Origin: an uncultured Eubacteriales bacterium
GTDB lineage: Bacteria > Bacillota > Clostridia > Oscillospirales > CAG-272
Reading direction: 5' to 3'
Assembly: GCA_902491535.1 (NCBI GenBank)
Contig: CABUHS010000007.1
Location: forward strand, 17,743-81,742
DNA length: 64,000 nt
Shown in pieces: positions 41,507 through 63,382 of the stretch. Each line of letters opens with the position of its first letter. Position 1 is the first letter of the stretch. The notes under the pieces are model-generated. The model saw only the letters and a program-made list of their open reading frames with translations, searched no databases and had not been told where the DNA came from. Both the position numbers and the translations under genes were made by a program.

Positions 41507-42238
41507 TCAGGCAATATCATTTAATACAGCCGCTAAGTCAGAGGTATCACGTTCCTGAAGCCGGCGCATTTTCAACCATGTTATAAATCCGTATATATCG
41601 TTCAGAAGAAACGTAACAAAGCAAACTGTCACAGAAAGATATGAAATATCCTCTGACACAGCCATCGACCATAAAATTATAAGGACAATATCATTAGCGG
41701 CATATGCAAGCGCAAAAAACGCACTGCGTCTGAATGTAAGATACGCCGCTATAAAGCTTGTTGCAACAGACACCGTACTCACAATAAGATTTGCCGTATC
41801 AAAATATTTCAGAATAAAATAGAATACGACCGTTACAGCCGTTGTCAGAATAAAAGCAAATACTGTCTCACAAACGGACAGGCGATTTATCTTAACCTTA
41901 AAATTATCGTCTCTGGACGGATTTCGGATCCACGATATAAGGGCAAATACCGCCATCGGCGCTGTCATTCCGAGATATGTTATCATCTCGCCGTAATATG
42001 CGCAGGTATACGAAATGATACCGTACATAATACTGAAGCATATTATAAGCACCTGTCCGAAAGGATTTCCGCGTGCATTAAAAATAAGAGAAGTACTTCC
42101 CACAAGTGAAGCGGCAAGAGCAAAAGTACTTCCTCCTCCGAAAATAAGCCGCGACGCAATTATAAGTATAACGGATGCGCTCCATATCGCAATGTCTGTG
42201 GCAGAAAAGCCTTTAAAAAATTTGATTTTTTTCTTCAT
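41507..42238 (-). CDS. pnuC: nicotinamide riboside (Pnu-family) transporter
   Basis: 243 aa with about 7 TM helices and a PnuC-like sequence (SLIFNARGNPFGQ...ISWIRNP). Substrate specificity within the Pnu family is not certain. Confidence 0.7.
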   Translation of the reverse strand: MKKKIKFFKGFSATDIAIWSASVILIIASRLIFGGGSTFALAASLVGSTSLIFNARGNPFGQVLIICFSIMYGIISYTCAYYGEMITYLGMTAPMAVFALISWIRNPSRDDNFKVKINRLSVCETVFAFILTTAVTVVFYFILKYFDTANLIVSTVSVATSFIAAYLTFRRSAFFALAYAANDIVLIILWSMAVSEDISYLSVTVCFVTFLLNDIYGFITWLKMRRLQERDTSDLAAVLNDIA

Positions 42239-42596: not shown

Positions 42597-43118
42597 ATGA
42601 AACTTCTTTTTGAAATAGACACAAAAGACTATAATCCCGACGGAAAAGCATTCGTAAGACCGTCTGTGCGCAGTATCATAATAAAAAACGGAAAAGTAGC
42701 TATGGTACACAGTCTGAAATACGACTATTACAAATTCCCGGGCGGCGGAATTGAGAAGGGTGAAAGCCATGAAGAAGCTTTAATACGGGAAACCTCAGAA
42801 GAAGCCGGGCTTTCGGTTATTCCGTGTACTATTACTGAATACGGATATGTTCACAGAATCCAGAAAAGCCACACATCTGATGATATATTCATTCAGGATA
42901 ATTATTACTACTTTTGCAGTACCAAGCAAAAGATACATTCTCAAAATTTAGACGACTACGAATCAGAAGAACATTTTACTTTGGAATGGATAGATCCTGC
43001 GACCGCAATCGAAATAAACAGAAAATCAGATCACGGCCCGAAAGATAAAAATATGATCGAACGCGAAGCCAAAGTGCTGGAATGCCTGATTGCAGATAAA
43101 TATCTGAGTGCTGACTGA
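42597..43118 (+). CDS. Nudix hydrolase
   Basis: Nudix box GGGIEKGESHEEALIRETSEEAGL. Confidence 0.85.
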   Translation: MKLLFEIDTKDYNPDGKAFVRPSVRSIIIKNGKVAMVHSLKYDYYKFPGGGIEKGESHEEALIRETSEEAGLSVIPCTITEYGYVHRIQKSHTSDDIFIQDNYYYFCSTKQKIHSQNLDDYESEEHFTLEWIDPATAIEINRKSDHGPKDKNMIEREAKVLECLIADKYLSAD

Positions 43119-44137: not shown

Positions 44138-45006
44138 TATTTTAAGGCTACCAGGACCTTTTCTATATCACCGTCAATGCAAACCGACTGTTTTTCGATT
44201 TCTTTAGGATAAACGGTCTGACCGAGATTTACGCACGCATAAACTGCTTTCGGATTTTTTTCTGTCATCTGCCAGAACGGATATTTAATAATAACCGGAG
44301 TATTATAGCCTACGCCGAGTTCCAAAAACAGAATGTGCAGATCCTTGTGACGGCGGATAAAATCGCCGCAACGGTCTGCTGCGGCATACCATCCCTCATC
44401 CTGCACGAATTTGTCATCGCACCGCAGGTTCATCGTCATCGGCGCACCGCATACAGGACATTTAGGAATAAGCTCCGTCGGAATTTTCATATTCTTTTGC
44501 TCAATGGTCATCTGACGAACTTTTATTTCATTGTCATAGGTTTTATCGTGACAGGCCTCCGAACATTGCCACAGGCCGTAATCCCCCTGCGTATAAAACA
44601 GCCTCTTTTTATCAAAGCCGGCAAGCTGAAACTGATGGTCTACATTAGTAGTAAGAACAAAGTAGTCCTTATCTCTCACAAGCTCCAATAATGCCGCATA
44701 CGGCTTACCAACGGTGACATCATAGCGGTTTATCAGAATGTGCCTCGACCACCACGCCCAGTATTCTTCTAAACTGTCATACGGATAAAAACCGCCCGAA
44801 TACATATCGGTAATACCGTATTTCTGATGAAAGTCGGAAAAGTATTTTTCAAAGCGTTCTCCGCTGTATGCCATTCCCGCTGAAGCAGATAGTCCTGCGC
44901 CTGCGCCGATCAAAATACAGTCGGCGGTTTCTATCTCCCTTTTCAGCCGTTCGATCTTATCCAAGCAGGCTTCTGTAGATTTCATAATCGGTATCTTTGA
45001 AAACAT
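44137..45006 (-). CDS. SIR2-family protein of the macrodomain-linked (SirTM) class
   Basis: Motifs ILIGAGAGLSASAG and LTTNVDHQF, and a zinc-ribbon module (CPVCGAP). It overlaps the upstream macrodomain gene by 50 nt. Confidence 0.8.
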   Translation of the reverse strand: MFSKIPIMKSTEACLDKIERLKREIETADCILIGAGAGLSASAGMAYSGERFEKYFSDFHQKYGITDMYSGGFYPYDSLEEYWAWWSRHILINRYDVTVGKPYAALLELVRDKDYFVLTTNVDHQFQLAGFDKKRLFYTQGDYGLWQCSEACHDKTYDNEIKVRQMTIEQKNMKIPTELIPKCPVCGAPMTMNLRCDDKFVQDEGWYAAADRCGDFIRRHKDLHILFLELGVGYNTPVIIKYPFWQMTEKNPKAVYACVNLGQTVYPKEIEKQSVCIDGDIEKVLVALK

Positions 45007-45730
45007 TGAATATCACCTTGATTTTGCTTTGGTTTTTCGCTGTAAATTCCTTTACAGTGCGTATTGCAATTTCCGCCGCTTTACCGTTCGGAAAATGAAA
45101 CTCGCCCGTAGATATGCAGCAAAACGCAATACTGTCTATTCTGTTTTGTTCTGCAAGCTCCATGCATGAACGGTAACAGGAAGCAAGCTGCATTTTATCC
45201 GTTTCAGTCAGTCTGCCGTGAACAATCGGACCTACCGTGTGCAGCACATACCGGCAAGGGAGATTAAAAGCGGGCGTTATTTTTGCTCTGCCCGTTTCTT
45301 CCCCACACCCTTGCTTTTTCATAAGCTCCGAGCAGGCAAGACGAAGCTGAACGCCGGAAAAAGTGTGAATGGCGTTATCAATACAACCGTGACAGGGACA
45401 GAAGCAGCCGAGCATCTGCGAGTTGGCAGCATTAACGATTGCGCCGCATCGGAGCGTAGTAATATCGCCCTGCCAAAGGTAGATACCGCCATATAACGGA
45501 GTTAGATCCACAATGTCAGTGATTCCCTTTTGCGCAATTTCCCTCTGCAAGTACCCGTCTTGTATTTGCAAAAATTCCGCCGATACAGGGCCCGGCATAC
45601 GGATATTAAAAAGCGAGCGGAGCAATTTTTTCTGTCTCTGACTGTCTTCCGGAATTGCTATATCTACATATTCCGGCTGCTCCCGTAACAGCTCTTTGAT
45701 TAAATAAATCCGTTTTTCATCATGTGTCAT
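44957..45730 (-). CDS. macrodomain protein (ADP-ribose / O-acetyl-ADP-ribose hydrolase type)
   Basis: Motifs GDITTLRCGAIVNAANS and CISTGEFHFP. The start is set at the ATG at 45728-45730, which has a GGGAGAA RBS. The ORF track extends to 45766. Confidence 0.85.
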   Translation of the reverse strand: MTHDEKRIYLIKELLREQPEYVDIAIPEDSQRQKKLLRSLFNIRMPGPVSAEFLQIQDGYLQREIAQKGITDIVDLTPLYGGIYLWQGDITTLRCGAIVNAANSQMLGCFCPCHGCIDNAIHTFSGVQLRLACSELMKKQGCGEETGRAKITPAFNLPCRYVLHTVGPIVHGRLTETDKMQLASCYRSCMELAEQNRIDSIAFCCISTGEFHFPNGKAAEIAIRTVKEFTAKNQSKIKVIFNVFKDTDYEIYRSLLG

Positions 45731-45830
45731 TTTTATTTCTCCCGAGCAGCTGCTTTTCGCGGACAAACACTCCTTTACCTTAAAACCGAGACTATCGTTA
45801 CGACAGCCCCGGTTTACTTTGTATACCTAT

Positions 45831-46943: not shown

Positions 46944-47279
46944 ATGAAAGAACAAAATACAACAAAGGATTTGCCCGCTTGTCCTGTCGAAACAACACTT
47001 ATGTTGATCGGAGATAAATGGAAAGTCTTGATTCTTCGGGATTTAATGCCGGGTACAAAGCGTTTCGGAGAGCTGAAAAAATCGATCGGAAGCGTATCAC
47101 AAAAGGTACTGACCGCACAGCTTCGCGATATGGAAGAAAACGGACTTGTGATCCGTCAGGTATATGCAGAAGTTCCGCCAAGGGTAGAATATTCATTAAC
47201 CGAACTCGGAAAAAGCCTGAAACCCATTCTTGATTCCATGCAAAATTGGGGCGAGGGGTATAAAGCTTCTATACGATAG
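46944..47279 (+). CDS. HxlR-family winged-helix transcriptional regulator
   Basis: CPVETTLMLIGDKWKVLILRDL...RFGELKKSI..VSQKVLTAQLRDMEENGLV.R. The start is set at MKEQNT. The ORF track extends to 46872. Confidence 0.85.
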   Translation: MKEQNTTKDLPACPVETTLMLIGDKWKVLILRDLMPGTKRFGELKKSIGSVSQKVLTAQLRDMEENGLVIRQVYAEVPPRVEYSLTELGKSLKPILDSMQNWGEGYKASIR

Positions 47280-47299
47280 AATAGGATCCTTGTTGTTTC

Positions 47300-47340
47300 A
47301 AAATAAAAATCCATCTGTTACGCAGATGGATTTTTATTTT
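47300..47340. terminator. bidirectional terminator
   Basis: Stem atccatctg / cagatggat with A-run and T-run flanks. Confidence 0.75.
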
Positions 47341-47372
47341 ATATGAAATTTATTTATCTTATAGATAATTAA

Positions 47373-48059
47373 CTATTCTGAATATATCTCCCCATCGTTA
47401 TCTGATATCTCCTTTAAAATTGTTTCCATGATGTCTTTGGGATGGGAAGTAAAAAATTCTTCAACCCAGTCATAGTACTCTTCCGCTGTCTTTCCCATTT
47501 CTTTGCCCTTTTTTTCGAGAATTGCTGATAATTCCGGATCGGATAATATCCGTTCTTTTTCATTTTGATGTTCTTCCATAAGCATTGCAACGAGTTTTTT
47601 ATCTTTCATAATGCAATCTGTGAATACATATTTTGAATTTTCAACTTCATCAAAGTAATTGATCCTGATAGACAGTCTTATTCCACCGTCTTCGGAAGCC
47701 TCAATTGTAATATTATGTGTTCTTTCAGCCATGTAAGATAATAAAGCAAAATCTTCGGAGCGGCAAACATCAAAGAACGGAAGATAAACATAAATATGAC
47801 ATTCATATTTATCGTAGTCAACTATACCTTTGATCTTACCGTGTTTCCTCCTTGCATAAATATCAAGGCGGGAAAGCAGATGTTCATATGTTTCTTTATC
47901 CTTTTGTACAATATATTTCGGCATTTTCCGTATAGCATCATCGTAAGCCTTAAAAAGGCCGCTTTCTACTGCATATTCCCAAATTTTCTGTTGATTTGGA
48001 GACAAAGTTTCTTTATTCTCCGTTCCTCGGTAATCTCTTTCAAAAATTTCATTTTCCAT
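47373..48059 (-). CDS. hypothetical protein (228 aa), AT-rich islet
   Basis: Clean ORF with no recognisable motif, divergent from the XRE gene array. Confidence 0.55.
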   Translation of the reverse strand: MENEIFERDYRGTENKETLSPNQQKIWEYAVESGLFKAYDDAIRKMPKYIVQKDKETYEHLLSRLDIYARRKHGKIKGIVDYDKYECHIYVYLPFFDVCRSEDFALLSYMAERTHNITIEASEDGGIRLSIRINYFDEVENSKYVFTDCIMKDKKLVAMLMEEHQNEKERILSDPELSAILEKKGKEMGKTAEEYYDWVEEFFTSHPKDIMETILKEISDNDGEIYSE

Positions 48060-48380
48060 AAAGCATTTAAACCTCCGTGTTTTTTATTATTATGTTTATT
48101 TATCTTAAATTTGCGTCTTCAACGCACTTTTTTGATATCGTATCTACATATGTATTTTCATATGAATGTCTTTATTAAACAATTTTATACTTCAATGTAT
48201 TAACTTAATATTATGTTGATTTAACAAAAGAACATAATATTAGTTTTTATGTAGAGATAGAATAATACGGTTAGTCTATGACTATATAATAACATAAAAT
48301 TAGTCGCTTTGCAACTAAAAGAATAAAAAAATTATGTCAGCTTCATTTATAATAGATTTAATATAGAAAGGTGGCAAAAA

Positions 48381-48698
48381 ATGAAACAAATCGAAGAAAT
48401 TATTTTAGACAGGATAACACAGCTAAGAATTCAAAAAGATGTATCGGAAAAACAATTAAGTAGAGAGATCGGTCGCTCATCCTCTTATCTTTCAGCAATG
48501 AATCAAAACAAAAGTATGCCTTCTCTACATTCAATAATTGGAATTTGCAAATATTTCAATATAACACTTTCTGAATTTTTTGACTTTGATTCTAATAAAT
48601 ATCCTGAATATATAAATGAGATAATTCAAAAAGTTAAACAACTTGATATCGCACAAATTAAGACTTTATCAGATCTTTTAGATTCGATGATAAAATAG
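48381..48698 (+). CDS. XRE-family HTH protein (paralog 1)
   Basis: HTH_3-like segment (ITQLRIQKDVSEKQLSREIGRSSSYLSAMNQNKSMPSLHSIIGICKYFNITLSEFF) with an AAAGGTGG RBS. Confidence 0.8.
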   Translation: MKQIEEIILDRITQLRIQKDVSEKQLSREIGRSSSYLSAMNQNKSMPSLHSIIGICKYFNITLSEFFDFDSNKYPEYINEIIQKVKQLDIAQIKTLSDLLDSMIK

Positions 48699-48823
48699 TC
48701 TTTTCTGTAAAATAAATAAATAATTATATAAACGTTTAAAAGGACTTTTTATATTTTTACCATTTGGCTCGTTTTCTATTATAATTAAAAGGCATTTATC
48801 GAACTAATTTAGGGGGATGCTTA

Positions 48824-49144
48824 GTGGAAGATAAAATTTTAAACCGCATTACGCAACTACGTATGCAGAAAAATATTACTGAAAAGAAAATAAGCAGAGA
48901 TATAGGAAAAACTTCAACATATTTATCCTCAATGAATAAAAATAAAAGCATGCCTTCACTTAGAACTTTAATTTCTATATGTGATTATTTAGGTGTTTCA
49001 TTGAGTGAATTTTTTGATTTTACAAATAATCCATATCCTATAAAAATAAACGAAGTCAGAAATGAGTTATTAAAGTTGAGCGAAAATGAATTAGATACTT
49101 TATTGGCGTTTTTAAAAGAAGTCAATAACAGTAAAACTAAATAA
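48824..49144 (+). CDS. XRE-family HTH protein (paralog 2)
   Basis: Collinear with the 48381-48698 product over its whole length, with roughly half the residues identical by eye. The start codon is GTG, after GGGGGA. Confidence 0.8.
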   Translation: MEDKILNRITQLRMQKNITEKKISRDIGKTSTYLSSMNKNKSMPSLRTLISICDYLGVSLSEFFDFTNNPYPIKINEVRNELLKLSENELDTLLAFLKEVNNSKTK

Positions 49145-49196
49145 AAAAACGCTTGCAGGACGCAGGCGGTTAGTATGGTGTTTTATAAGGAATAAA

Positions 49197-49547
49197 ATGG
49201 ATATTGAGAGAAAGCAATTATTAAAAGAAATGGGACAGCGTTACTTTGAATCACGAAAGTCTAAAGGACTGACGCAGGAAGAAGCCGCCGAAATAGCGGA
49301 TGTAACACAACAGGCTATTTCTGATGCGGAATTGGGCAAAAGCTTTTTATCTCCTGACAGTATGCTACGTCTTTGTAAGGCTTATGAAATTAGTTGTGAT
49401 TATTTGTTGACTGGTGAAATATCTGATAAAGATACTTTAATAATTGATAAGCACATACGAGAATTAGATGCAGAAACTTTTCGCCATTATAAAGGAATAA
49501 CTGAGCATTTTATAGCAGCAGTATTGAATCAAAAAGATAAATCATGA
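49197..49547 (+). CDS. XRE-family HTH protein
   Basis: HTH segment GLTQEEAAEIADVTQQAISDAELGKSFLSPDSMLRLCKAYEISCDYLL. Confidence 0.8.
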   Translation: MDIERKQLLKEMGQRYFESRKSKGLTQEEAAEIADVTQQAISDAELGKSFLSPDSMLRLCKAYEISCDYLLTGEISDKDTLIIDKHIRELDAETFRHYKGITEHFIAAVLNQKDKS

Positions 49548-49747
49548 TTATATTCGACAAATTATGGATCACCATGTCTCAAAAAGGCATGACAACATAT
49601 CAACTTAGAGAAAAGTGCGATATTGACAGTAAGACTATTCGCAGATTAAAAGCAAATGAAAATATTGAAACAAAAACTTTAGATAAACTTTGCGACGCAC
49701 TATCTTGTAGATTAGAAGATATTGCTGAATATAAAGAAGTGAACTAG
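49544..49747 (+). CDS. small XRE/Cro-like HTH protein (67 aa)
   Basis: MTTYQLREKCDIDSKTIRRLKANENIETKTLDKLCDALSCRLEDI. It overlaps the upstream gene by ATGA. Confidence 0.75.
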   Translation: MIIFDKLWITMSQKGMTTYQLREKCDIDSKTIRRLKANENIETKTLDKLCDALSCRLEDIAEYKEVN

Positions 49748-49805
49748 AAAATATTTTTATTATGAAATACGGTAAAATTAAAATAAATAAAGATATAGAT
49801 AAATA

Positions 49806-49836
49806 AGAGCGCAGAATCGATACGATTCTGCGCTCT
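49806..49836. terminator. bidirectional terminator
   Basis: 14-bp perfect stem agagcgcagaatcg / cgattctgcgctct. Confidence 0.8.
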
Positions 49837-49870
49837 TTAAACTGTTAAATATTTGTAATTTATCAGGATA

Positions 49871-50476
49871 TCAATAATTGCACATATCAAATCTCTCAGC
49901 AGGTAAAACACATTGCTGCATAACTGCAATGATATGCTCCACGGAGTCCCGGCAGTCCTGATTCAGCCACTCGGTAATAATCGCTATCAATCCGTGAATA
50001 TAAAAGGTCATCATGTATTCCCGTTTTTCATGCGGCACTTGAAAACGGTCCAATATCGGCGTGAATACATACCGAAACAGCTTGAAGTAGCTGTCTTCAA
50101 GCCGTAATGCCGATGCATTTTTCAGCATTGTCTGAAATAACCGTTGATTTTGTTTTATATTGCTGAGATACGGAATCAGATATTCCGGAGTGATCAGATA
50201 CAGCTCCTCCATCGAACAATTTTGGATTTTTTTCAGAAATGCAGAGTGTTCGGTCTGATTACGCTCAAAAAATTGCTGGGTTATATATTCCACACATTCT
50301 GAAATAATATCGCTTACAGTCTCATAGTGCAGATAGAAAGTAGAACGGTTTACACCGGCTTTTTCACAGATCTCCTTTACTGTGATATATTCAATCTCCT
50401 TTTTTTCGAGCAGATTCAGGAAAGCCACGTCCATTTTGACAGCCGTATTGAAATACTTACTTTCAGACTTGTTCAC
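49871..50476 (-). CDS. TetR-family transcriptional regulator
   Basis: N-terminal HTH ITVKEICEKAGVNRSTFYLHY. It is the last gene of a three-gene operon. Confidence 0.85.
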   Translation of the reverse strand: MNKSESKYFNTAVKMDVAFLNLLEKKEIEYITVKEICEKAGVNRSTFYLHYETVSDIISECVEYITQQFFERNQTEHSAFLKKIQNCSMEELYLITPEYLIPYLSNIKQNQRLFQTMLKNASALRLEDSYFKLFRYVFTPILDRFQVPHEKREYMMTFYIHGLIAIITEWLNQDCRDSVEHIIAVMQQCVLPAERFDMCNY

Positions 50477-51371
50477 AGCGCACCTCCTCCTTTCGTCTTT
50501 GTGCAGAATGAATCAGCATACATACAGCGATAATAATAACGGTTCCGTACACACCGCTTCCGGTTACGGTATTCATCAGCCTTCGGAAATTCGTATCTCC
50601 TTCCGAAAATTGAGCGATCATTGCCGTTTGCAATCCGAGGATCGACATCATGGAAGCAACAAAATTCAGCACTTTTGCGGCGGACAGGATCGGGCTTCCG
50701 ATTTTGCGGAATCTTACAAGATTGACAACCGATAGAATCATCGTGTAAAAAGTATAAAGCGCTGACAGATAGATTACATAACCGGGGTAAGTATAACCTG
50801 CATTTGCCCGTATCATCAATACAATCATGCCGCCCATAGGAATGTTCAATAAAAACAAAAACCACGCGGTGCGGCGGTAGCATCGATACTCATAGGACAG
50901 TCCGTACTTTTTTCTGCGGCGGTAACTGAAAATCAGATAGGCTCGCAAGGTTCCCAACACCAAATAGTATACAGCTATAGAAATAAACCATACAGACGCA
51001 TACCGAATGCCGGCGATAACACGGAACAGAAGATATAAAAAATTTACTGCCATTCCCTGATAGATACCTATGCTGCCACGGAAAGCCATATCAGACAGAT
51101 ATCTGCCTCCTATTTTTGTACCGGCTATCTTCTTCACGGCTCTGTTGTTCATGATTCCTGTTTTGACTGCTCTTAATAATTTCGGGGCAGAGACAAGCCA
51201 GATCATAAGAGAGTACGCTGACAATCCGTATATAGGATATGCCGCCGCACTCTCTGTTTTGTTTGCGGCAAAGATGAAAATAAGTGCAGCAAATACAATC
51301 GGCGGAACAGAAATCAAAATCCATTTCGACGGATACAACACTTTATTTAAAATCATCTTTGCTTTTTTCAT
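50463..51371 (-). CDS. polytopic membrane protein (302 aa), function unknown
   Basis: About 8 hydrophobic helices. It overlaps the TetR gene by 14 nt. Confidence 0.6.
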   Translation of the reverse strand: MKKAKMILNKVLYPSKWILISVPPIVFAALIFIFAANKTESAAAYPIYGLSAYSLMIWLVSAPKLLRAVKTGIMNNRAVKKIAGTKIGGRYLSDMAFRGSIGIYQGMAVNFLYLLFRVIAGIRYASVWFISIAVYYLVLGTLRAYLIFSYRRRKKYGLSYEYRCYRRTAWFLFLLNIPMGGMIVLMIRANAGYTYPGYVIYLSALYTFYTMILSVVNLVRFRKIGSPILSAAKVLNFVASMMSILGLQTAMIAQFSEGDTNFRRLMNTVTGSGVYGTVIIIAVCMLIHSAQRRKEEVRCEQV

Positions 51372-55299: not shown

Positions 55300-55785
55300 T
55301 CATTCGGCACAGTAAAGCGAATACGGGGGATTCTTACCAATATAAGGAGTATAAACAAATCTATTATCTTTAATGGCGTTCCCTATCATGATTTTTGTTA
55401 ATTCCGGTATATCATCACGCGTTAACGATTCCTCAATCGGAATCCATATTACTTCACTGTTTTCATTTCCGTCGGATTGCGGATTTCCAGAAATATATTC
55501 CGCTGTAAAAACAACGTACCAATCATGTGAGTTAAAACGAATTCCGATAATATCTTTCGGTTCGATCACAATATTCACTTCTTCTAAAAACTCTCGTTTT
55601 AAAGCTTCTTGAGGAGTTTCCCCAAATTCAACATATCCTCCCGGTATAATTAATTTCCCCTTTCCGCCTCCATAAGTGTGACGGGCAAGCAGAACTTTAT
55701 TATTTTTTATACATACCGCAGCTACACTTTGACACCAATTCGTATTATCAGAACTCATTTTTTCTTTTCCCCTTTCACTTGTCAT
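55300..55785 (-). CDS. Nudix hydrolase
   Basis: Nudix box GGYVEFGETPQEALKREFLEEVN. Confidence 0.85.
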   Translation of the reverse strand: MTSERGKEKMSSDNTNWCQSVAAVCIKNNKVLLARHTYGGGKGKLIIPGGYVEFGETPQEALKREFLEEVNIVIEPKDIIGIRFNSHDWYVVFTAEYISGNPQSDGNENSEVIWIPIEESLTRDDIPELTKIMIGNAIKDNRFVYTPYIGKNPPYSLYCAE

Positions 55786-55953: not shown

Positions 55954-56008
55954 TGGTGCCGGTGGCGGGACTTGAACCCGCACGATGTTGCCATCAACGG
56001 ATTTTGAG
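55954..56008 (-). other. 3' fragment of tRNA-Leu (anticodon CAA): anticodon loop through CCA only; probable attachment-site or junction remnant
   Basis: The reverse complement ctcaaaatccgttgatggcaacatcgtgcgggttcaagtcccgccaccggcacca covers the anticodon loop, the 3' anticodon stem, a long variable arm, the T-arm, the acceptor 3' strand and CCA. No matching 5' acceptor strand (gccggtg) lies within 100 nt upstream. Confidence 0.7.
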
Positions 56009-56313
56009 TTTTAAATGAAACTCCGTACACCGCCGAATTGACCGCCTTTCAGGGGATTAGAACCGAACCCGAAAAGTCAATGTTTTCAAGTCTTTTGAGG
56101 TAGTTTCCTCTGAAAAGCCTTGATTTATAAGGGCGCATTGAATTTTTCCGATTTGGCGCTCGATTTTGCAAAACGGAGGGATATTGGAGGGATGTTGACA
56201 GGATCGCAATTCCCTCCGAACAACAACTGCGTGCATTAACACACGCACTAAATTCATTTTCAAAGCATACGATCATCTGCCATTGACAAATTTTATAAAG
56301 GAGATCGTAAACT

Positions 56314-56559
56314 ATGAAATTCAAACCTAACGATTATTTTCTGAAGCAATACCCTGATCTGTTGAACACCAAAGAGGTAGGAGAAATTTTGCGGATAAGC
56401 ACAAAAACGGTTTGCAAAATGATCCATGAGGGCGAAATAAAAGCTTTTAGTGTGGCAAGAAAGACACTCGTTCCCAAAGTCTATTTGCTCCAATATATCT
56501 ATGGAAAAGACGCTCCGAAGATTGACGACTTGGTAAAGATATATGGAGGCGAAAAATGA
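56314..56559 (+). CDS. excisionase-family (MerR-like) HTH DNA-binding protein
   Basis: LNTKEVGEILRISTKTVCKMIHEGEIKAFSVARKTLVPK is a typical helix-turn-helix_17 pattern. Confidence 0.7.
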   Translation: MKFKPNDYFLKQYPDLLNTKEVGEILRISTKTVCKMIHEGEIKAFSVARKTLVPKVYLLQYIYGKDAPKIDDLVKIYGGEK

Positions 56560-56798
56560 AATCAAGGATGCACTATGAAAAACTTTTTGCCCCATATCCT
56601 GATGTTGTGACTTTGCCGGAGTTTTGTAATATGCTCGGCGGTATCGGAGACAGCACAGCCCGAAAACTTATACAGGCAAACAAGGTCAAGCACTTCTACA
56701 TAAGATGTACATATCTTATCCCCAAAGAAAGCGTAATTGACTATGTGATGAGTTATGACTACTTAGAGTACAGCAAAAAGTTAAAAGCGAGGATTTGA
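56556..56798 (+). CDS. second excisionase-like HTH protein
   Basis: VTLPEFCNMLGGIGDSTARKLIQANKVKHFYIRCTYLIPK. It overlaps the upstream gene by ATGA. Confidence 0.6.
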   Translation: MKSRMHYEKLFAPYPDVVTLPEFCNMLGGIGDSTARKLIQANKVKHFYIRCTYLIPKESVIDYVMSYDYLEYSKKLKARI

Positions 56799-56850: not shown

Positions 56851-58380
56851 TTATATATAGTATTTAAATGGCTTTGCCGCCCAATTCACATCAGGAATGG
56901 CTGTTAGAATATCTCCTATTTTATCAGAAAACCGAAGAGTAACTGGAAGCCCATCTCCATACAAACAAGCATTATAATTAAGTTTTGTTAGGGCAAGGAT
57001 ATCTCTCATAACAGTCTTAATATCTGCTTGTCCTCTATTTATTTCAATATGTAATGGGCAAGCAACCTCTAAATGATTAGCGGTTTCAGTTTTGGGGATG
57101 AATCCTTTTGTCCACAAATAACCGCTTTTTTCATCTACATATAAACACAATCCGCGTAAAATGCCATATTGCGATTTGGGGTCGGTATTATCCTTTAACA
57201 ATCTCAGTCCACTTTTTTCTCTAATTGCTACGCCCACCAAATTTGTCGTTGGAGAAATGTTTGCGGCATCTTGAAACCCATTCCATTCATCATTTGTAAA
57301 TGCAGTTCTTCCGTGAATAAATAATTCTTTTGGATAGGATTTGTGTTTGTCGTAATATGCGTCAATAGCTATTGATAACAGTGCTTTTGCTGATATTCTA
57401 TCCAAATGAAAAGTTTTTTCATTTTTGCTTATCCACGGGCCAATATTTCCTCTAAAAACAACGCCATCACCTGAATCAAGAAACATTTGTGCCGCACTGC
57501 AAGCATATCCTTTCTGTTTGCCTGTATCTTGTAGTTTCTTAAACACAAGGCCAACATAACATACGCCCTCTCTTACAGCATCTAACTTCCACGGCAAACA
57601 TCCCAATTTGTAATATAAAGAGCTTGAATGTGTCCATGCAAGATGTGCTTTCATATCGCTATTGTATTCGTCGCTACCATCTTTAGGTTGGAATTGTAAT
57701 GTTGATTCAAGCATTACTTGAATGGGGCATGCTATTTTATTGTAAATTGCCCTCGCTTTTAACTGATCGTGAAAATCCGAATCTGATTCATACATTTCAA
57801 CATATTGGCTCAAATCTTCATTATCTTCTGGAAACAATGATATCTGGCCCGAAGTAAAGGTTTCAATTTGTTTTTTACTATAAGTTGCTTTACCAGAAAG
57901 GGATTTTGGTCTGCATAAAGTCAAGACTGCATTAGGAACAACTACATACCAAATATCTACAACCGATTCTTCGTCCTCTATGTATTTTTTAATTGCATTC
58001 AAATAAAGTGAAACTAAATTATATGTTCTCTCTTTTAGATTTGTAATCGCCAATGCAGTATCTAAGTCACTTTGTGATAAAATTATAGTTGCAGTAGGCT
58101 CGACAGACCATTCAATGCCAAACACTGATTTGAATCCCGGAAAAAATGGTCGTCCGGACGAATTTGTAAAAATTGGTTTATTCATTTGGCATACAAAAGA
58201 GCGATAATATTCCAATCCTTTTTCAGTACAAATAACGCCAACACGAATTGTACTACTATTTTTTTCATACGGTCCGAAAAGAGTTAGCCCATCCCTACTG
58301 TCCTCTGCGGATTGATTAAATGCAAATTTGAGCTTTGGTTCTTCCATATAGTATAATTGATTATTCGGCATTTTCATCAC
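56851..58380 (-). CDS. short prokaryotic Argonaute (MID-PIWI only), SPARTA-type
   Basis: 509 aa, too short for the N and PAZ lobes. It shows the blocks I recognise from characterised SPARTA Agos: EEPKLKFAFNQ..DSRDGLTLFGP, FHDQLKAR...PIQV (HK-type MID 5'-phosphate pocket), HLAWT, PWKL, AAQMFLDSGDGVVF, LTKLNYNAC, PVTLRFSDKIGDILTA and the C-terminal KPFKYYI. GTG at 58380; ATG alternatives at 58377 and 58371. Confidence 0.9.
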   Translation of the reverse strand: MMKMPNNQLYYMEEPKLKFAFNQSAEDSRDGLTLFGPYEKNSSTIRVGVICTEKGLEYYRSFVCQMNKPIFTNSSGRPFFPGFKSVFGIEWSVEPTATIILSQSDLDTALAITNLKERTYNLVSLYLNAIKKYIEDEESVVDIWYVVVPNAVLTLCRPKSLSGKATYSKKQIETFTSGQISLFPEDNEDLSQYVEMYESDSDFHDQLKARAIYNKIACPIQVMLESTLQFQPKDGSDEYNSDMKAHLAWTHSSSLYYKLGCLPWKLDAVREGVCYVGLVFKKLQDTGKQKGYACSAAQMFLDSGDGVVFRGNIGPWISKNEKTFHLDRISAKALLSIAIDAYYDKHKSYPKELFIHGRTAFTNDEWNGFQDAANISPTTNLVGVAIREKSGLRLLKDNTDPKSQYGILRGLCLYVDEKSGYLWTKGFIPKTETANHLEVACPLHIEINRGQADIKTVMRDILALTKLNYNACLYGDGLPVTLRFSDKIGDILTAIPDVNWAAKPFKYYI

Positions 58381-59665
58381 CTACCTGTTTATAAACATAC
58401 GGTTCTATATAACTCTTTTCTGAAATGAAACGCTCTGATTGACTTCTAATGTACATAGCATTTTCTTCGCAACAAGGGGTATAGAAAATATTTTCTGTTC
58501 CACCTGACAAGAAAAACATACTTGCTTGCAACCATTCTTTCCACTGCTTGTTGAACATCAAACGGCCTTTGCTTCGACGAGCTGCAATTTGTGAGGCATC
58601 AGGTAGAGGAATACCCTTTTCATCTGTAAAGATTATATGCCACTTAAATATTATCCCAGACATCGGATAATTTGTATAATACCCGCTCAATCCAAAATGC
58701 CATCTTTTTATACTTCTATAAGTTCCCGAAAGAGCTTTTTCTCTACTTGTTGCAAAGCGCTTTGATTTCGCACCATTAGGGAAAAAGTAAACATTTTTAC
58801 TGGTTTTACCTGAATTTGATTTATAACGACGCAAGCCGTGTTTGTAAAACATTTCACCTATCATCCAATTCACTATTGAAACAATATCGCGCGAAAGGTT
58901 GGATATGGATTCTCCAAGATATGTATTGGGTAAGGTGTGGTTTTGGATAGCGTCTTTTGTGTCCAACTTAATGAAATCTACTTCTCTCAAACACCAATCA
59001 CAGATACATTTGTTGCAGGCAAATGTCACGATTACTTTCTTATTCTTTTTCATAGGAATATGTCGAGTAGTTAAAACTTCTTCAACATCTTCTCTTTTAT
59101 AAATATAAACGGATTCGGGAAGATCGAGAGCAAAAAGGTTACTGCAATATTCATCTTCGTTATCAACTGTTTGCGATCTGAGCTTGGTTTGAGAACTAAA
59201 CCATCTATCGATATAATGCTGACTATCAGTATTTGACATGACCTTAACTATGTTTTCATCATTTAGATATTTTAACAAAGTCTCTAATCCCTTTGCCCAA
59301 TCATTGTAGAAATCAATTGCATTTAGTCGCAATATTTCTACAGGAAGGTCATTGTAGCTTACATTATCGATTCTAACTGGAACGATAAAATTGGGGTTCT
59401 GCCTTCTTATTTTATCTGCAACAGCCAATTCTTTTTGTACACCATCTCTGTTCGGATCAATAGATGCATTACTCATTACGAAAATAAACTTCACGGCATC
59501 ATTGCGAATTGTTTGGTCGATAGTATTCCAAAAATCAACGGATGGAGCAAGATCATTTAAATCTACCCACACCTTGTAACCGCAAAGTTCAAGTTTTGTT
59601 GCAAGCCATGTAGCAAAAATATTGTCAGTCGGAGTTGCATGACTAATAAAAATAGTATCTTTCAT
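58361..59665 (-). CDS. TIR-APAZ protein (TIR NADase effector fused to an APAZ Argonaute-partner domain)
   Basis: The N-terminal TIR domain (IFISHATPTDNIFATWLATKLELCGYKVWVD...FIFVMSNASI...GVQKELAVA, with a candidate catalytic Glu) is followed by about 290 aa. The 3' end overlaps the Argonaute start by 11-20 nt, and the size (434 aa) matches SPARTA partners. Confidence 0.9.
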   Translation of the reverse strand: MKDTIFISHATPTDNIFATWLATKLELCGYKVWVDLNDLAPSVDFWNTIDQTIRNDAVKFIFVMSNASIDPNRDGVQKELAVADKIRRQNPNFIVPVRIDNVSYNDLPVEILRLNAIDFYNDWAKGLETLLKYLNDENIVKVMSNTDSQHYIDRWFSSQTKLRSQTVDNEDEYCSNLFALDLPESVYIYKREDVEEVLTTRHIPMKKNKKVIVTFACNKCICDWCLREVDFIKLDTKDAIQNHTLPNTYLGESISNLSRDIVSIVNWMIGEMFYKHGLRRYKSNSGKTSKNVYFFPNGAKSKRFATSREKALSGTYRSIKRWHFGLSGYYTNYPMSGIIFKWHIIFTDEKGIPLPDASQIAARRSKGRLMFNKQWKEWLQASMFFLSGGTENIFYTPCCEENAMYIRSQSERFISEKSYIEPYVYKQVGDENAE

Positions 59666-59667
59666 AA

Positions 59668-60600
59668 TTATCTACCTCCTGACAAAAGTTCTGCATAGTT
59701 ATTCAACCGTTCCTCTACATACTCAGCAATCATCTGAACTATAGCCCCTGCGTCGTTATCTCTGTAATAACTGTCAAAGGTTTCATAATACCGCTTGCGG
59801 TCAGCAAACTTCACATTGATAGGAGGATAGCCGTTCTGCATAAGAAACAGGTTCAGGATCAAACGCCCTGTACGGCCGTTGCCGTCTACGAACGGGTGGA
59901 TTCCCTCAAATTTTAGATGAAACAGCGCTGCACTCTCAATCGGGTGTAGCTTTTTCTTTGAAAACTCTTTTATGAGCTTTTCCATCTGTTCCGGTACAAC
60001 AACCGGCTCCGGCGGCGTGTGGTATGCTCCCATGATTCTAACGGGAATCCGTCGATAAACGCCGCGATCTTCCGGTCTATCCATCAAAACCAGAGTATGA
60101 ATCTGCTTAATAATGTTTTCTGAAAAAGGAACTTTATCTTTTACTAATTCCTGTACATAAAGAAATGCGTCTTTGTGCCCGACGGCTTCTAAATGATCTT
60201 TCAACGGCTTTCGGTCAATCGTAATACCCTCTAAAACGAGAGCTGTTTCCTGCAAAGTTAAGGTGTTTCCCTCAATCGCATTCGAGTTATAAGTGTATTC
60301 AACCAAAAATTCTTCTTGTAACCGCTGTAATTCACCTCTCGTAAGTGGTCGCCGCTGATCTAACTGTTCCTTTAGGCTGTCAATGCGGGAAAACAACGGC
60401 AAATATTGTTCCGACACTGCTTTATGACGAAGGGTGCGCCCGTCAATCGGCTTTACAGCGTCACACGGTATTAGGTAAGAGCGCCCTTTTTGAATAACAC
60501 CTTCAATTTTTCCTTGCTGGCACAGAATACGAACCCTGCGATCAGAAATGCCCCATTGTTCCGCCGCCTGCGTGACTTTCATATATTCCATTGCGTTCAC
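59668..60600 (-). CDS. Fic-domain protein with an N-terminal HTH and an internal inhibitory motif
   Basis: It has the canonical Fic motif HPFVDGNGRTGR, an upstream SNAIEGN segment matching the (S/T)xxxE(G/N) inhibitory helix, and an N-terminal MerR-like HTH (VTQAAEQWGISDRRVRILCQQGKI). Its stop lies 2 nt before the TIR-APAZ ATG. Confidence 0.9.
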   Translation of the reverse strand: MNAMEYMKVTQAAEQWGISDRRVRILCQQGKIEGVIQKGRSYLIPCDAVKPIDGRTLRHKAVSEQYLPLFSRIDSLKEQLDQRRPLTRGELQRLQEEFLVEYTYNSNAIEGNTLTLQETALVLEGITIDRKPLKDHLEAVGHKDAFLYVQELVKDKVPFSENIIKQIHTLVLMDRPEDRGVYRRIPVRIMGAYHTPPEPVVVPEQMEKLIKEFSKKKLHPIESAALFHLKFEGIHPFVDGNGRTGRLILNLFLMQNGYPPINVKFADRKRYYETFDSYYRDNDAGAIVQMIAEYVEERLNNYAELLSGGR

Positions 60601-60756
60601 CGCCTACATAACATTCTTGTTTTTTATAGTATAGCACATAATCGGAATAATATCAATCTATTTTGCAGAAACTTCGGATTCATATCATTCCTAAATTTAC
60701 ATAGCCGTCTGCTTCGCCGCAGGCGGCTAAATCTATGTAAAGGAGGAAACCCCAAA

Positions 60757-62467: not shown

Positions 62468-62668
62468 AATTTTCCTAACAAGGGATAACTATACCCTAAA
62501 ATAAGGCAAGGTGCGGCGGTGTTCGCTTGTCCCCCCTCTCCACACCTCTCCCCCTCAAAAACTACCTGTACTACCCGAAAAAAGAGATATTACAGGGCGG
62601 CGATTTTCGTACCTTTGCAGAAATCCGCAAAAATTCGTACAATGAAGCTGCAAAGGAGGTTTGCGAAT

Positions 62669-63382
62669 ATGAAAAAAGCAAGGATAATCGCTGTTATGGC
62701 GGCATTGATTGTTTCTTTGTCGGGTTGTGCGAATACGGATTACCCGCAGGCGATACAGGACAGTTCGGGCATTGAAACGGTGACAAGAGGGATTGATGAG
62801 CGTACAGAGCCGGAAGAAAGTTCGTCCGCTTCTGTTTCGGAGAGTAAAGAGAACGCCGCTGACAGTACAGCCGCAGTCAAGGCAGAAACGGAATCGGCAC
62901 AGGCTGAAAATGCACAGCCTGCCGCAGAACAAAGTCCTGCACTGGGGACGCAATCACCACAGACGGCCGTTTCAAACAATACGCCGAAGCCTAAAACGCC
63001 GAAAGCCGTTGAGCCTACGCCGGAACCAAAGCCTGCGCCGACACAACAGCCCACGCCGCCCCCTGCGGAAGAAACGCCAAAGGTCGAGCAGCCGCGGGAA
63101 ACCACACCGGCGCCCGAAGAACCTGCCGTTCCCGAATTTAACATTCAGACTTGGATCGACTATGCCAAAACCTACGCTGTGAGTGTTGGGTTACGGCTTG
63201 AAAGCTCGGCGGTTGACTGTTGGGACAATCCTGTTGCCGCAGGAGCATACAGCACTTGTCTGGAACGGGATATTGCAGGCAGGCTGGATCGGTACAGCCG
63301 TGATGAAGATATTACCGATGTTTGGATATGGGCGCAGGCACGCTCCGACGGGAGCTACGATTTGTATATCGGCTACGCCTAA
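62669..63382 (+). CDS. lipoprotein with a Pro/Thr/Glu-rich linker
   Basis: MKKARIIAVMAALIVSLSGC contains a lipobox (LSGC), with an AAGGAGG RBS. The ORF-track start at 62519 is rejected. Confidence 0.7.
   Translation: MKKARIIAVMAALIVSLSGCANTDYPQAIQDSSGIETVTRGIDERTEPEESSSASVSESKENAADSTAAVKAETESAQAENAQPAAEQSPALGTQSPQTAVSNNTPKPKTPKAVEPTPEPKPAPTQQPTPPPAEETPKVEQPRETTPAPEEPAVPEFNIQTWIDYAKTYAVSVGLRLESSAVDCWDNPVAAGAYSTCLERDIAGRLDRYSRDEDITDVWIWAQARSDGSYDLYIGYA

Follow-up and report, generated by a model that had tools for sequence, protein, structure and literature searches.

SPARTA systems and a gene pair from a gut Clostridia genome

Systems that pair a short pAgo (prokaryotic Argonaute) with a TIR-APAZ protein (SPARTA) are already well understood mechanistically, with dozens of solved structures, and are in use as nucleic-acid detection tools. 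In the closest described systems, BabSPARTA (PDB 8QLO/8QLP) and MapSPARTA from Maribacter polysiphoniae (8FEX/8FFI), the TIR-APAZ gene lies upstream of, and overlaps, the gene for an Argonaute (Ago) of ~507 amino acids (aa) that consists of MID and PIWI domains, while CrtSPARTA (PDB 8ISY and others) comes from Crenotalea thermophila, a thermophilic member of the Bacteroidota. The SPARDA (DREN-APAZ), SPARSA (SIR2-APAZ) and SPARHA (HNH) systems share the scaffold of a MID-PIWI short Ago and APAZ. The RefSeq survey of Koopal et al. 2022 found SPARTA only in Acidobacteria, Bacteroidetes and Proteobacteria (PMC9097488), and in the literature that we searched there was no paper tying TIR-APAZ to Firmicutes, or SPARTA or short pAgos to Clostridia. 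Here we analyse 64,000 nucleotides (nt) of DNA from an uncultured Eubacteriales bacterium (assembly GCA_902491535.1, contig CABUHS010000007.1, positions 17,743 to 81,742; this whole stretch is called the window, and its numbering is used throughout), in which two overlapping genes on the minus strand have the layout of the Bab and Map pairs. Judged by sequence, they form an intact SPARTA (clade S2A short pAgo with TIR-APAZ), in which all the defining features that can be read at this level are present. The pair belongs to a divergent Clostridial clade found on mobile elements, and its architecture and predicted mechanism are already known. The locus does not challenge the current understanding of SPARTA; it adds a divergent, mesophilic, anaerobe-derived orthologue and puts gut Clostridia on the list of documented hosts.

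The TIR-APAZ gene (58361..59665), an open reading frame (ORF) of 434 aa that starts with an ATG and has a GGAGG ribosome-binding site upstream, corresponds to the SPARTA subunit that acts as effector and mimics the N lobe. The Ago gene (56851..58371) comprises 506 codons plus stop when read from the ATG at 58371, and two alternative starts lie in frame just upstream, the ATG at 58377 (508 aa) and the GTG at 58380 (509 aa), so that the overlap with TIR-APAZ is 11, 17 or 20 nt, respectively. The original prediction, made from the letters of the window alone, had described a 434-aa ORF with an N-terminal TIR domain overlapped by 11–20 nt by a 509-aa ORF; both are there, the length and the overlap of the second depending on the start. 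The start at 58371 is most likely, because an AGGTGA Shine-Dalgarno sequence is found six nt 5' of this ATG and because Ago homologues are mostly 505–506 aa long, and it gives an 11-nt overlap. Public gene calls take the 508-aa form, which accounts for the absence of any match in exact-sequence look-ups with the 509-aa and 506-aa Ago, when the corresponding look-up with TIR-APAZ succeeded. The two-gene pair, with an overlap of 8–11 nt, is kept in all the relatives examined at 60–99% identity, whatever their neighbours. Both genes are under strong purifying selection, with ratios of nonsynonymous to synonymous substitution rates (dN/dS) of 0.061 and 0.064 against a 91–94%-identical orthologue (L009). 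As a side observation, the TIR-APAZ start codon is TTG instead of ATG in three relatives (L010, L014 and L020), in which the Ago overlap is still kept; TIR-APAZ of the first two is 73–74% identical to the window copy.

Profile searches against PADLOC, phmmer searches of the PDB and Foldseek comparisons of predicted structures agree for both proteins on the SPARTA assignment that had been proposed originally. TIR-APAZ matches the PADLOC profile Aga_TIR-PNTD1-PNTD2 (E-value 9.5e-115, aa 1–427) and Pfam TIR_2 (5.2e-21, aa 5–131), and Ago matches PADLOC pAgo_I (7.6e-183, with aa 7–509 on profile positions 2–493 of 493). Among PDB chains, Ago aligns end to end with BabAgo (2e-133), MapAgo (5e-133) and CrtAgo (1e-131), its residues 8–509 matching residues 3–507 of the 507-aa SPARTA Agos, and TIR-APAZ aligns over the full length with the Bab (8qlo_A, 1e-56), Crt (8ifk_A, 2e-50) and Map (8fex_A, 8e-48) proteins. 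The AlphaFold2 model of Ago (predicted local distance difference test score, pLDDT, 77.9; predicted TM-score, pTM, 0.79) is best matched by, and superposes on, the free CrtSPARTA Ago (8isy_A; query TM-score, TMq, 0.89; E-value 6e-54), with ~41% identity over the structural alignment. The top 36 Foldseek hits are all SPARTA Agos and are followed by SPARDA Agos at 22–24% identity. The other short-pAgo systems match the window Ago far more weakly (TM-scores of 0.78–0.79 at 22–24% identity; PDB phmmer E-values of 1e-29 to 4e-45), and the window effector is a TIR domain in place of their DREN, SIR2 or HNH domains. For TIR-APAZ (model pLDDT 85.9) Foldseek finds 8qlo_A with an E-value of 1.5e-34 over 438 columns, and the top 35 hits are all SPARTA TIR-APAZ chains. 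The whole-chain TM-score of this model is only ~0.5, because the isolated-chain model sets TIR differently relative to APAZ; the APAZ-only chains 8jr8_B and 8oze_E superpose on it with target TM-scores (TMt) of 0.77–0.78 and root-mean-square deviations of 3.5–3.7 Å.

The Ago consists of MID and PIWI only, and the predicted lack of N and PAZ lobes is borne out by the alignment, by the pAgo_I coverage and by the superposition. A long (catalytic) pAgo was considered and rejected, since long pAgos match only aa 254–496 (E-value 1e-5 for CpAgo) and there is no N/PAZ region. Membership in the Mrr-TIR-APAZ subclade was likewise rejected, since TIR begins at residue 1–5 and the PADLOC REase-TIR profile matches only from its position 155 on.

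Conserved functional residues and the predicted inactive PIWI domain

The residues that we mapped are those shown to be essential by mutagenesis or structure in the characterised systems (PMC9097488, PMC10899771, PMC11156904, PMC10474274). The predicted TIR NADase domain (59255..59665, about aa 1–137, covered by the TIR_2 match) carries the catalytic glutamate as Glu79 (59429–59431, mapped from Bab/Map E77), which is invariant in 26 TIR-APAZ homologues, as well as the BB-loop Trp46 (59528–59530, kept from Bab/Map W46) and the tetramer-interface arginines Arg54 (59504–59506, mapped from R54) and Arg113 (59327–59329, mapped from R114); the functional roles of E77, R54 and R114 are known from previous studies (PMC10899771, PMC9097488). 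The APAZ domain (58400..59173, about aa 165–422), delimited by alignment to the solved TIR-APAZ chains and by Foldseek, contains Asn176 (59138–59140), the nearly invariant equivalent of the essential Asn174.

In Ago, for which residue numbers follow the 506-aa form from here on, the MID domain (57607..58371, about aa 1–255) carries the predicted 5'-phosphate pocket. An HK-type pocket had been proposed from the sequence, and His201 (57769–57771) and Lys205 (57757–57759) do map onto H207 and K211 of the Map and Bab proteins, which act in the 5'-phosphate pocket there (PMC11156904). The pocket residues H201, K205, N467 and I506 are all invariant in 22 homologues, across which the mapped functional residues of Ago are mostly invariant too. 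The ligands of Mg2+ and phosphate are kept (N466 and N468 as Asn465 and Asn467), and so are R481 (as Arg480) and the FKYYI C terminus, as Lys503-Tyr504-Tyr505-Ile506; the terminal carboxylate of KYYI helps to hold Mg2+. The residues of the pAgo dimer are retained as well (Y262 as Y254, and K504/Y505 as K503/Y504), with conservative swaps at two dimer or sensor sites (D133 to E and K395 to R). The catalytic glutamate, the tetramer arginines, Asn174, the HK pocket, the Mg2+-binding asparagine, Y262/K504/Y505 and the C-terminal FKYYI are thus common to the window pair and to BabSPARTA and MapSPARTA. The motifs quoted in the original prediction (FHDQLKAR, AAQMFLDSGDG, LTKLNYNAC, PVTLRFSDKIGDILTA and the terminal FKYYI) are all present.

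The PIWI domain (56854..57606, aa 256–506) is predicted to be catalytically dead. Strand β1 of its RNase-H fold (aa 270–279, VCYVGLVFKK) has no aspartate, and neither has the end of β4 (aa 349–355, ELFIHGR), both being located from the DSSP assignment of the model together with the sequence. Active Agos carry GxDV on β1 and RDG at β4. The first and the third catalytic aspartates therefore appear to be missing, an assignment by topology that covers these two positions of the tetrad. A profile-profile alignment of the Ago family with the PIWI domain of human AGO2, aimed at the DEDH residues, gave nothing usable (probability 0.04). Of the features that alignment to SPARTA Agos had been expected to bring out, the MID pocket is thus found residue by residue, while the DEDX tetrad can be judged by topology only. 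As a general rule, short pAgos are without the DEDX tetrad (PMC9097488); in the structural papers that we searched its absence is stated, with no list of the residues found in its place.

Proposed mechanism and alternative explanations

We consider it very probable, at roughly 0.9, that the pair codes for a working SPARTA system. The mechanism outlined here is carried over from the characterised orthologues in all its parts: how the complex forms, which guides and targets it prefers, its NADase output and the phenotype. TIR-APAZ and Ago would form a 1:1 heterodimer in which APAZ stands in for the missing N/L1/L2 lobe, and the MID pocket, with His201, Lys205 and a Mg2+ ion held by Asn467 and the Ile506 carboxylate, would bind a 5'-phosphorylated small guide RNA, the guides coming from highly transcribed, multicopy invader DNA. 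Pairing with complementary single-stranded DNA would then lead to pAgo-pAgo dimerisation and on to tetramerisation via the TIR domains, where composite NADase sites around Glu79 would deplete NAD(P)+, so that the invaded cell would stop growing (abortive infection and plasmid interference). PIWI is expected to act as a sensor only, with no cleavage. The module is probably transcribed together with the Fic gene directly upstream and/or from a promoter in the 3' end of that gene.

Several observations weigh against a functional SPARTA, or at least against one that behaves exactly like those characterised. Identity to the characterised systems is moderate (44–45% for Ago and 35% for TIR-APAZ). 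The profile check suggested originally was satisfied by TIR_2 and pAgo_I, but Pfam Piwi (PF02171) gave no match to Ago (56851–58380) at E<=0.01, and none of the 120 Ago homologues listed has a precomputed Pfam domain. Because pAgo_I matches over the full length at 7.6e-183, the missing match reflects the insensitivity of the Pfam model for this clade, and annotation by Pfam alone would call this SPARTA clade 'hypothetical protein', as the names in the source records show. Unlike in the Bab and Map proteins, Tyr148, which contacts the first base of the guide, is replaced by leucine, two further nucleic-acid contacts on the guide- and tail-binding surface are changed (R225 to L and R243 to E), and the BB-loop residues Asp40 and Lys41 of TIR-APAZ are replaced. 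The TIR-APAZ C-terminal tail (58364..58399; model pLDDT <50 for residues 425–434) also differs, as only about 12 aa (YVYKQVGDENAE) remain after the conserved YxEP motif (15 aa if counted from the equivalent of Map residue 417), with an acidic content of 25–27%. In general, the acidic C-terminal extension of APAZ proteins measures 16–46 aa with 21–45% Asp/Glu, and in BabSPARTA and MapSPARTA a tail of ~34 residues occupies the nucleic-acid cleft and makes guide affinity roughly 20-fold lower (PMC10899771). Lastly, SPARTA gave little protection from phages in E. coli (PMC9097488).

We had considered the short tail as a unique novelty but dropped this idea: a tail of ~12 aa is also found in 70–99%-identical relatives, and since members of the wider TIR-APAZ family have anything from no tail to one of about 35 aa, the short tail is a clade trait and no categorical difference. 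From its length, one would predict weaker autoinhibition. Because the contact residues, the BB loop and the tail all differ, guide preference, sensitivity and temperature optimum could differ from those of the characterised systems. What the locus offers lies in host range, in the ecology of defence systems and in enzyme diversity, as a source of variants whose inhibitory tail is short by nature, and less in mechanism.

Could the system comprise three genes, with the neighbouring Fic protein as a partner or regulator of SPARTA? The HTH_17-Fic gene (59668-60600, minus strand) has an intact active-site motif (HPFVDGNGRTGR), is matched in PADLOC by two candidate defence families, SoFic and PDC-S04 (1e-35 to 1e-37), and adjoins SPARTA in all relatives of at least 91% identity; its cluster has 1086 members, one of which is named Fic family protein of Hominenteromicrobium sp. 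Its stop codon is separated from the TIR-APAZ ATG by 2 nt, with no terminator-like site between, and a putative promoter (60628..60656, minus strand; TTGATA-17-TATACT with an extended TG) lies upstream of Fic and is the probable start of a Fic/TIR-APAZ/Ago transcript. Given the 2-nt gap and this promoter-like site, Fic and SPARTA are likely to be co-transcribed. However, a Fic of the same 90% cluster is the last gene of SPARTA-less ArdA-ParB-ParA-Fic elements (L022-L029), homology to which ends at 59707, some 40 nt short of the end of Fic. Conversely, SPARTA relatives at 60–80% identity have no Fic gene, and L010 and L011 keep only its last ~275 nt, with a homology edge at 59943. A second putative promoter in the 3' end of Fic (59910..59939, minus strand; 10/12 matches in a consensus scan) is situated just inside the segment 59943-56852 that is shared with 80%-identical relatives in which Fic is not intact. 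As Fic occurs without SPARTA and SPARTA without Fic, we rejected Fic as a third component: it is a backbone gene of the element, and what is conserved as a mobile unit is the two-gene SPARTA cassette, possibly including the promoter in the Fic remnant. Characterised SPARTAs also work with two genes (PMC9097488), and a three-gene system, largely refuted already, is very improbable. That the pair is a passively carried relic, in decay or already inactive, is extremely improbable, even if the in-frame TIR::Ago deletion fusions P0032 and P0057 (described below) show that loss-of-function variants exist: both frames are intact, the key residues are kept, dN/dS is about 0.06 and the exact TIR-APAZ protein is present on 16 contigs from several samples, including human gut metagenomes. 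The TIR domains of other bacterial systems make cyclic ADP-ribose isomers, and one may ask whether the TIR domain here produces a signalling nucleotide for a separate effector, as in Thoeris, with no depletion of NAD+. This too we regard as having hardly any chance, as no ThsA-, SLOG- or SAVED-type effector is adjacent and as the protein corresponds, both in architecture and in the residues of the tetramer interface, to the SPARTA TIR that depletes NAD.

A different kind of alternative keeps the mechanism the same and changes the beneficiary: the module would mainly serve the conjugative element that carries it, either as a weapon against competing plasmids and integrative conjugative elements (ICEs) or as a stabiliser of the element, in that cells taking up multicopy, highly transcribed DNA of a rival would be killed. 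This is possible, although we would not favour it. The module sits inside the element, ~0.9 kb from the tRNA-derived attachment (att) end, and its relatives sit on other mobile elements, the neighbours of the 60–80%-identical ones being IS66 and integrases, a relaxase and a type IV coupling protein, a type II restriction-modification system with a serine recombinase, TnpV/W and MobA, or helicases. Relatives in the plasmid database are <=41% identical and come mostly from Proteobacteria, with some others, for example Haloarcula and Nostoc; conjugative plasmids are frequent among the plasmid-borne proteobacterial ones (46 of 87 records). The known triggers of SPARTA are high-copy transcribed plasmids and not phages (PMC9097488). 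On the other hand, this is evidence from context only, and defence genes commonly travel on mobile elements without serving them specifically. A more elaborate version is unlikely in our view: that the gut-Clostridia SPARTA clade is dedicated cargo of conjugative and mobilisable elements, an inter-element weapon run from the backbone Fic promoter, with the minimal tail and the Y148 to L change tuning it for a lower activation threshold or for a different guide class than in the Bacteroidota systems. If this were true, an ICE of the anaerobic gut could do away with cells in which rival plasmids or ICEs arrive. Returning to the functional two-gene SPARTA that we prefer, the module moves as a discrete cassette among ICEs, mobilisable transposons and islands rich in insertion sequences of the human gut.

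Mobile element, insertion site and neighbouring genes

The evidence supports the view that the SPARTA pair is AT-rich, horizontally acquired cargo near the end of an ICE in an Oscillospiraceae-like gut bacterium. Its G+C content (GC) is 35.7%; the chromosome has 43.3%, Fic 44.6% and the ParA-ParB region 51.2%. On every contig that is long enough the order is constant, with ArdA, a 1400-aa SpaA-like surface protein, ParB, ParA, HTH-Fic, TIR-APAZ, Ago and two HTH_17 genes, while the DNA past the HTH_17 genes varies (NUDIX, radical-SAM and guaA in the window genome, SNaCT13 and MFS elsewhere). Nucleotide homology to independently inserted copies ends at 55954, and the last 60 bp of the element (putative attR, 55954..56013, minus strand) are the 3' part of a class-II tRNA, with a CTCAAAA anticodon loop, variable arm, T arm, acceptor strand and CCA. 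ARAGORN called no tRNA at this end, and Rfam gave a match that is named tmRNA and belongs to the tRNA clan (23 bits, E-value 2e-7), below the gathering score; we read the end as a tRNA part because of compensatory changes in the T arm and the variable arm across L009 and L013. Directly beyond it lies a 16-bp terminator hairpin of the host (55952-55914, minus strand). Such an end is what site-specific integration into a tRNA gene leaves behind, and the gene is probably that of tRNA-Leu(CAA). Mobile-element cargo of high AT content, as originally proposed, is thus supported by the GC content, the homology edge and the tRNA-derived end.

The remainder of the window is ordinary chromosome, with genes for LeuRS, RsfS, FtsY, SMC, RNase III, PlsX, TopA, DprA, IF3, LDH, aspartokinase and GuaA. 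The closest named relatives of LeuRS (78–83% identity) are from metagenome-assembled genomes (MAGs) labelled Clostridia, Ruminococcaceae/Oscillospiraceae and Eubacteriales, in line with the Clostridia-like host of the original prediction. Its contrast between this lineage and a set of characterised systems confined to Bacteroidota stands in part, since the window system is more divergent but BabSPARTA comes from a MAG labelled Bacillales, yet is 80% identical to MapSPARTA (PMC10899771). In contrast to the Bab and Map systems, the window host is a gut anaerobe of the Clostridia and the module is ICE cargo. Matches in reference genomes at 75–99% are from an uncultured Ruminococcus sp., from MAGs of Oscillospiraceae and Acutalibacteraceae and, at 99%, from an uncultured bacterium without classification, and a 51%-identity relative is annotated 'TIR domain-containing protein [Eubacteriales bacterium]'. 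Below ~60% the named relatives are Bacteroidota (for example Dysgonamonadaceae and Runella) and Ignavibacteriales.

Two metagenomic alleles on Logan contigs of ~3 kb, with the proteins P0032 and P0057, are 96–100% identical to the window and carry different in-frame deletions that fuse TIR to Ago. In these fusions TIR, or TIR and a part of APAZ, is joined to the C-terminal two-thirds of Ago, with the removal of APAZ; P0057 also loses the MID 5'-phosphate pocket, and P0032 retains FHDQLKAR. Assembly may have produced them as artefacts, or they may be alleles that escape a toxic system by loss of function. The fusions may also explain why TIR-APAZ and Ago share one 90% cluster, a mixture for which we rejected the 702-member Ago cluster as a measure of Ago abundance.

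Between SPARTA and the element end, two small overlapping HTH_17 (excisionase-like) genes (56314-56559 and 56556-56798, plus strand) converge on Ago. The SPARTA-less relatives do not have them, and there is no integrase gene from this pair to the att site. At the opposite end, downstream of ParB, a 287-aa Pro/Thr/Glu-rich protein of the element backbone (62519-63382, plus strand) has no Pfam match and is 48–86% conserved among related elements; the ~1400-aa SpaA-like surface protein and ArdA follow it, past the window. On the chromosome near the insertion there are genes related to NAD and ADP-ribose, for a PnuC NMN transporter (41507-42238), a Macro-domain protein (44957-45766) and two NUDIX hydrolases (42597-43118 and 55300-55785), the last of which directly flanks the element end; their proximity to an NADase system is probably a coincidence. 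Finally, the stretch 47000-50000 is strongly AT-rich (GC 0.29–0.31 versus 0.43 for the chromosome) and, by the gene calls of L001, has four small HTH_3/HTH_26 regulators beside a TetR-family gene. Grouped with this stretch, which may be a second horizontally acquired islet, are ORFs at 47373-48059 and 50463-51371 that have no Pfam match.

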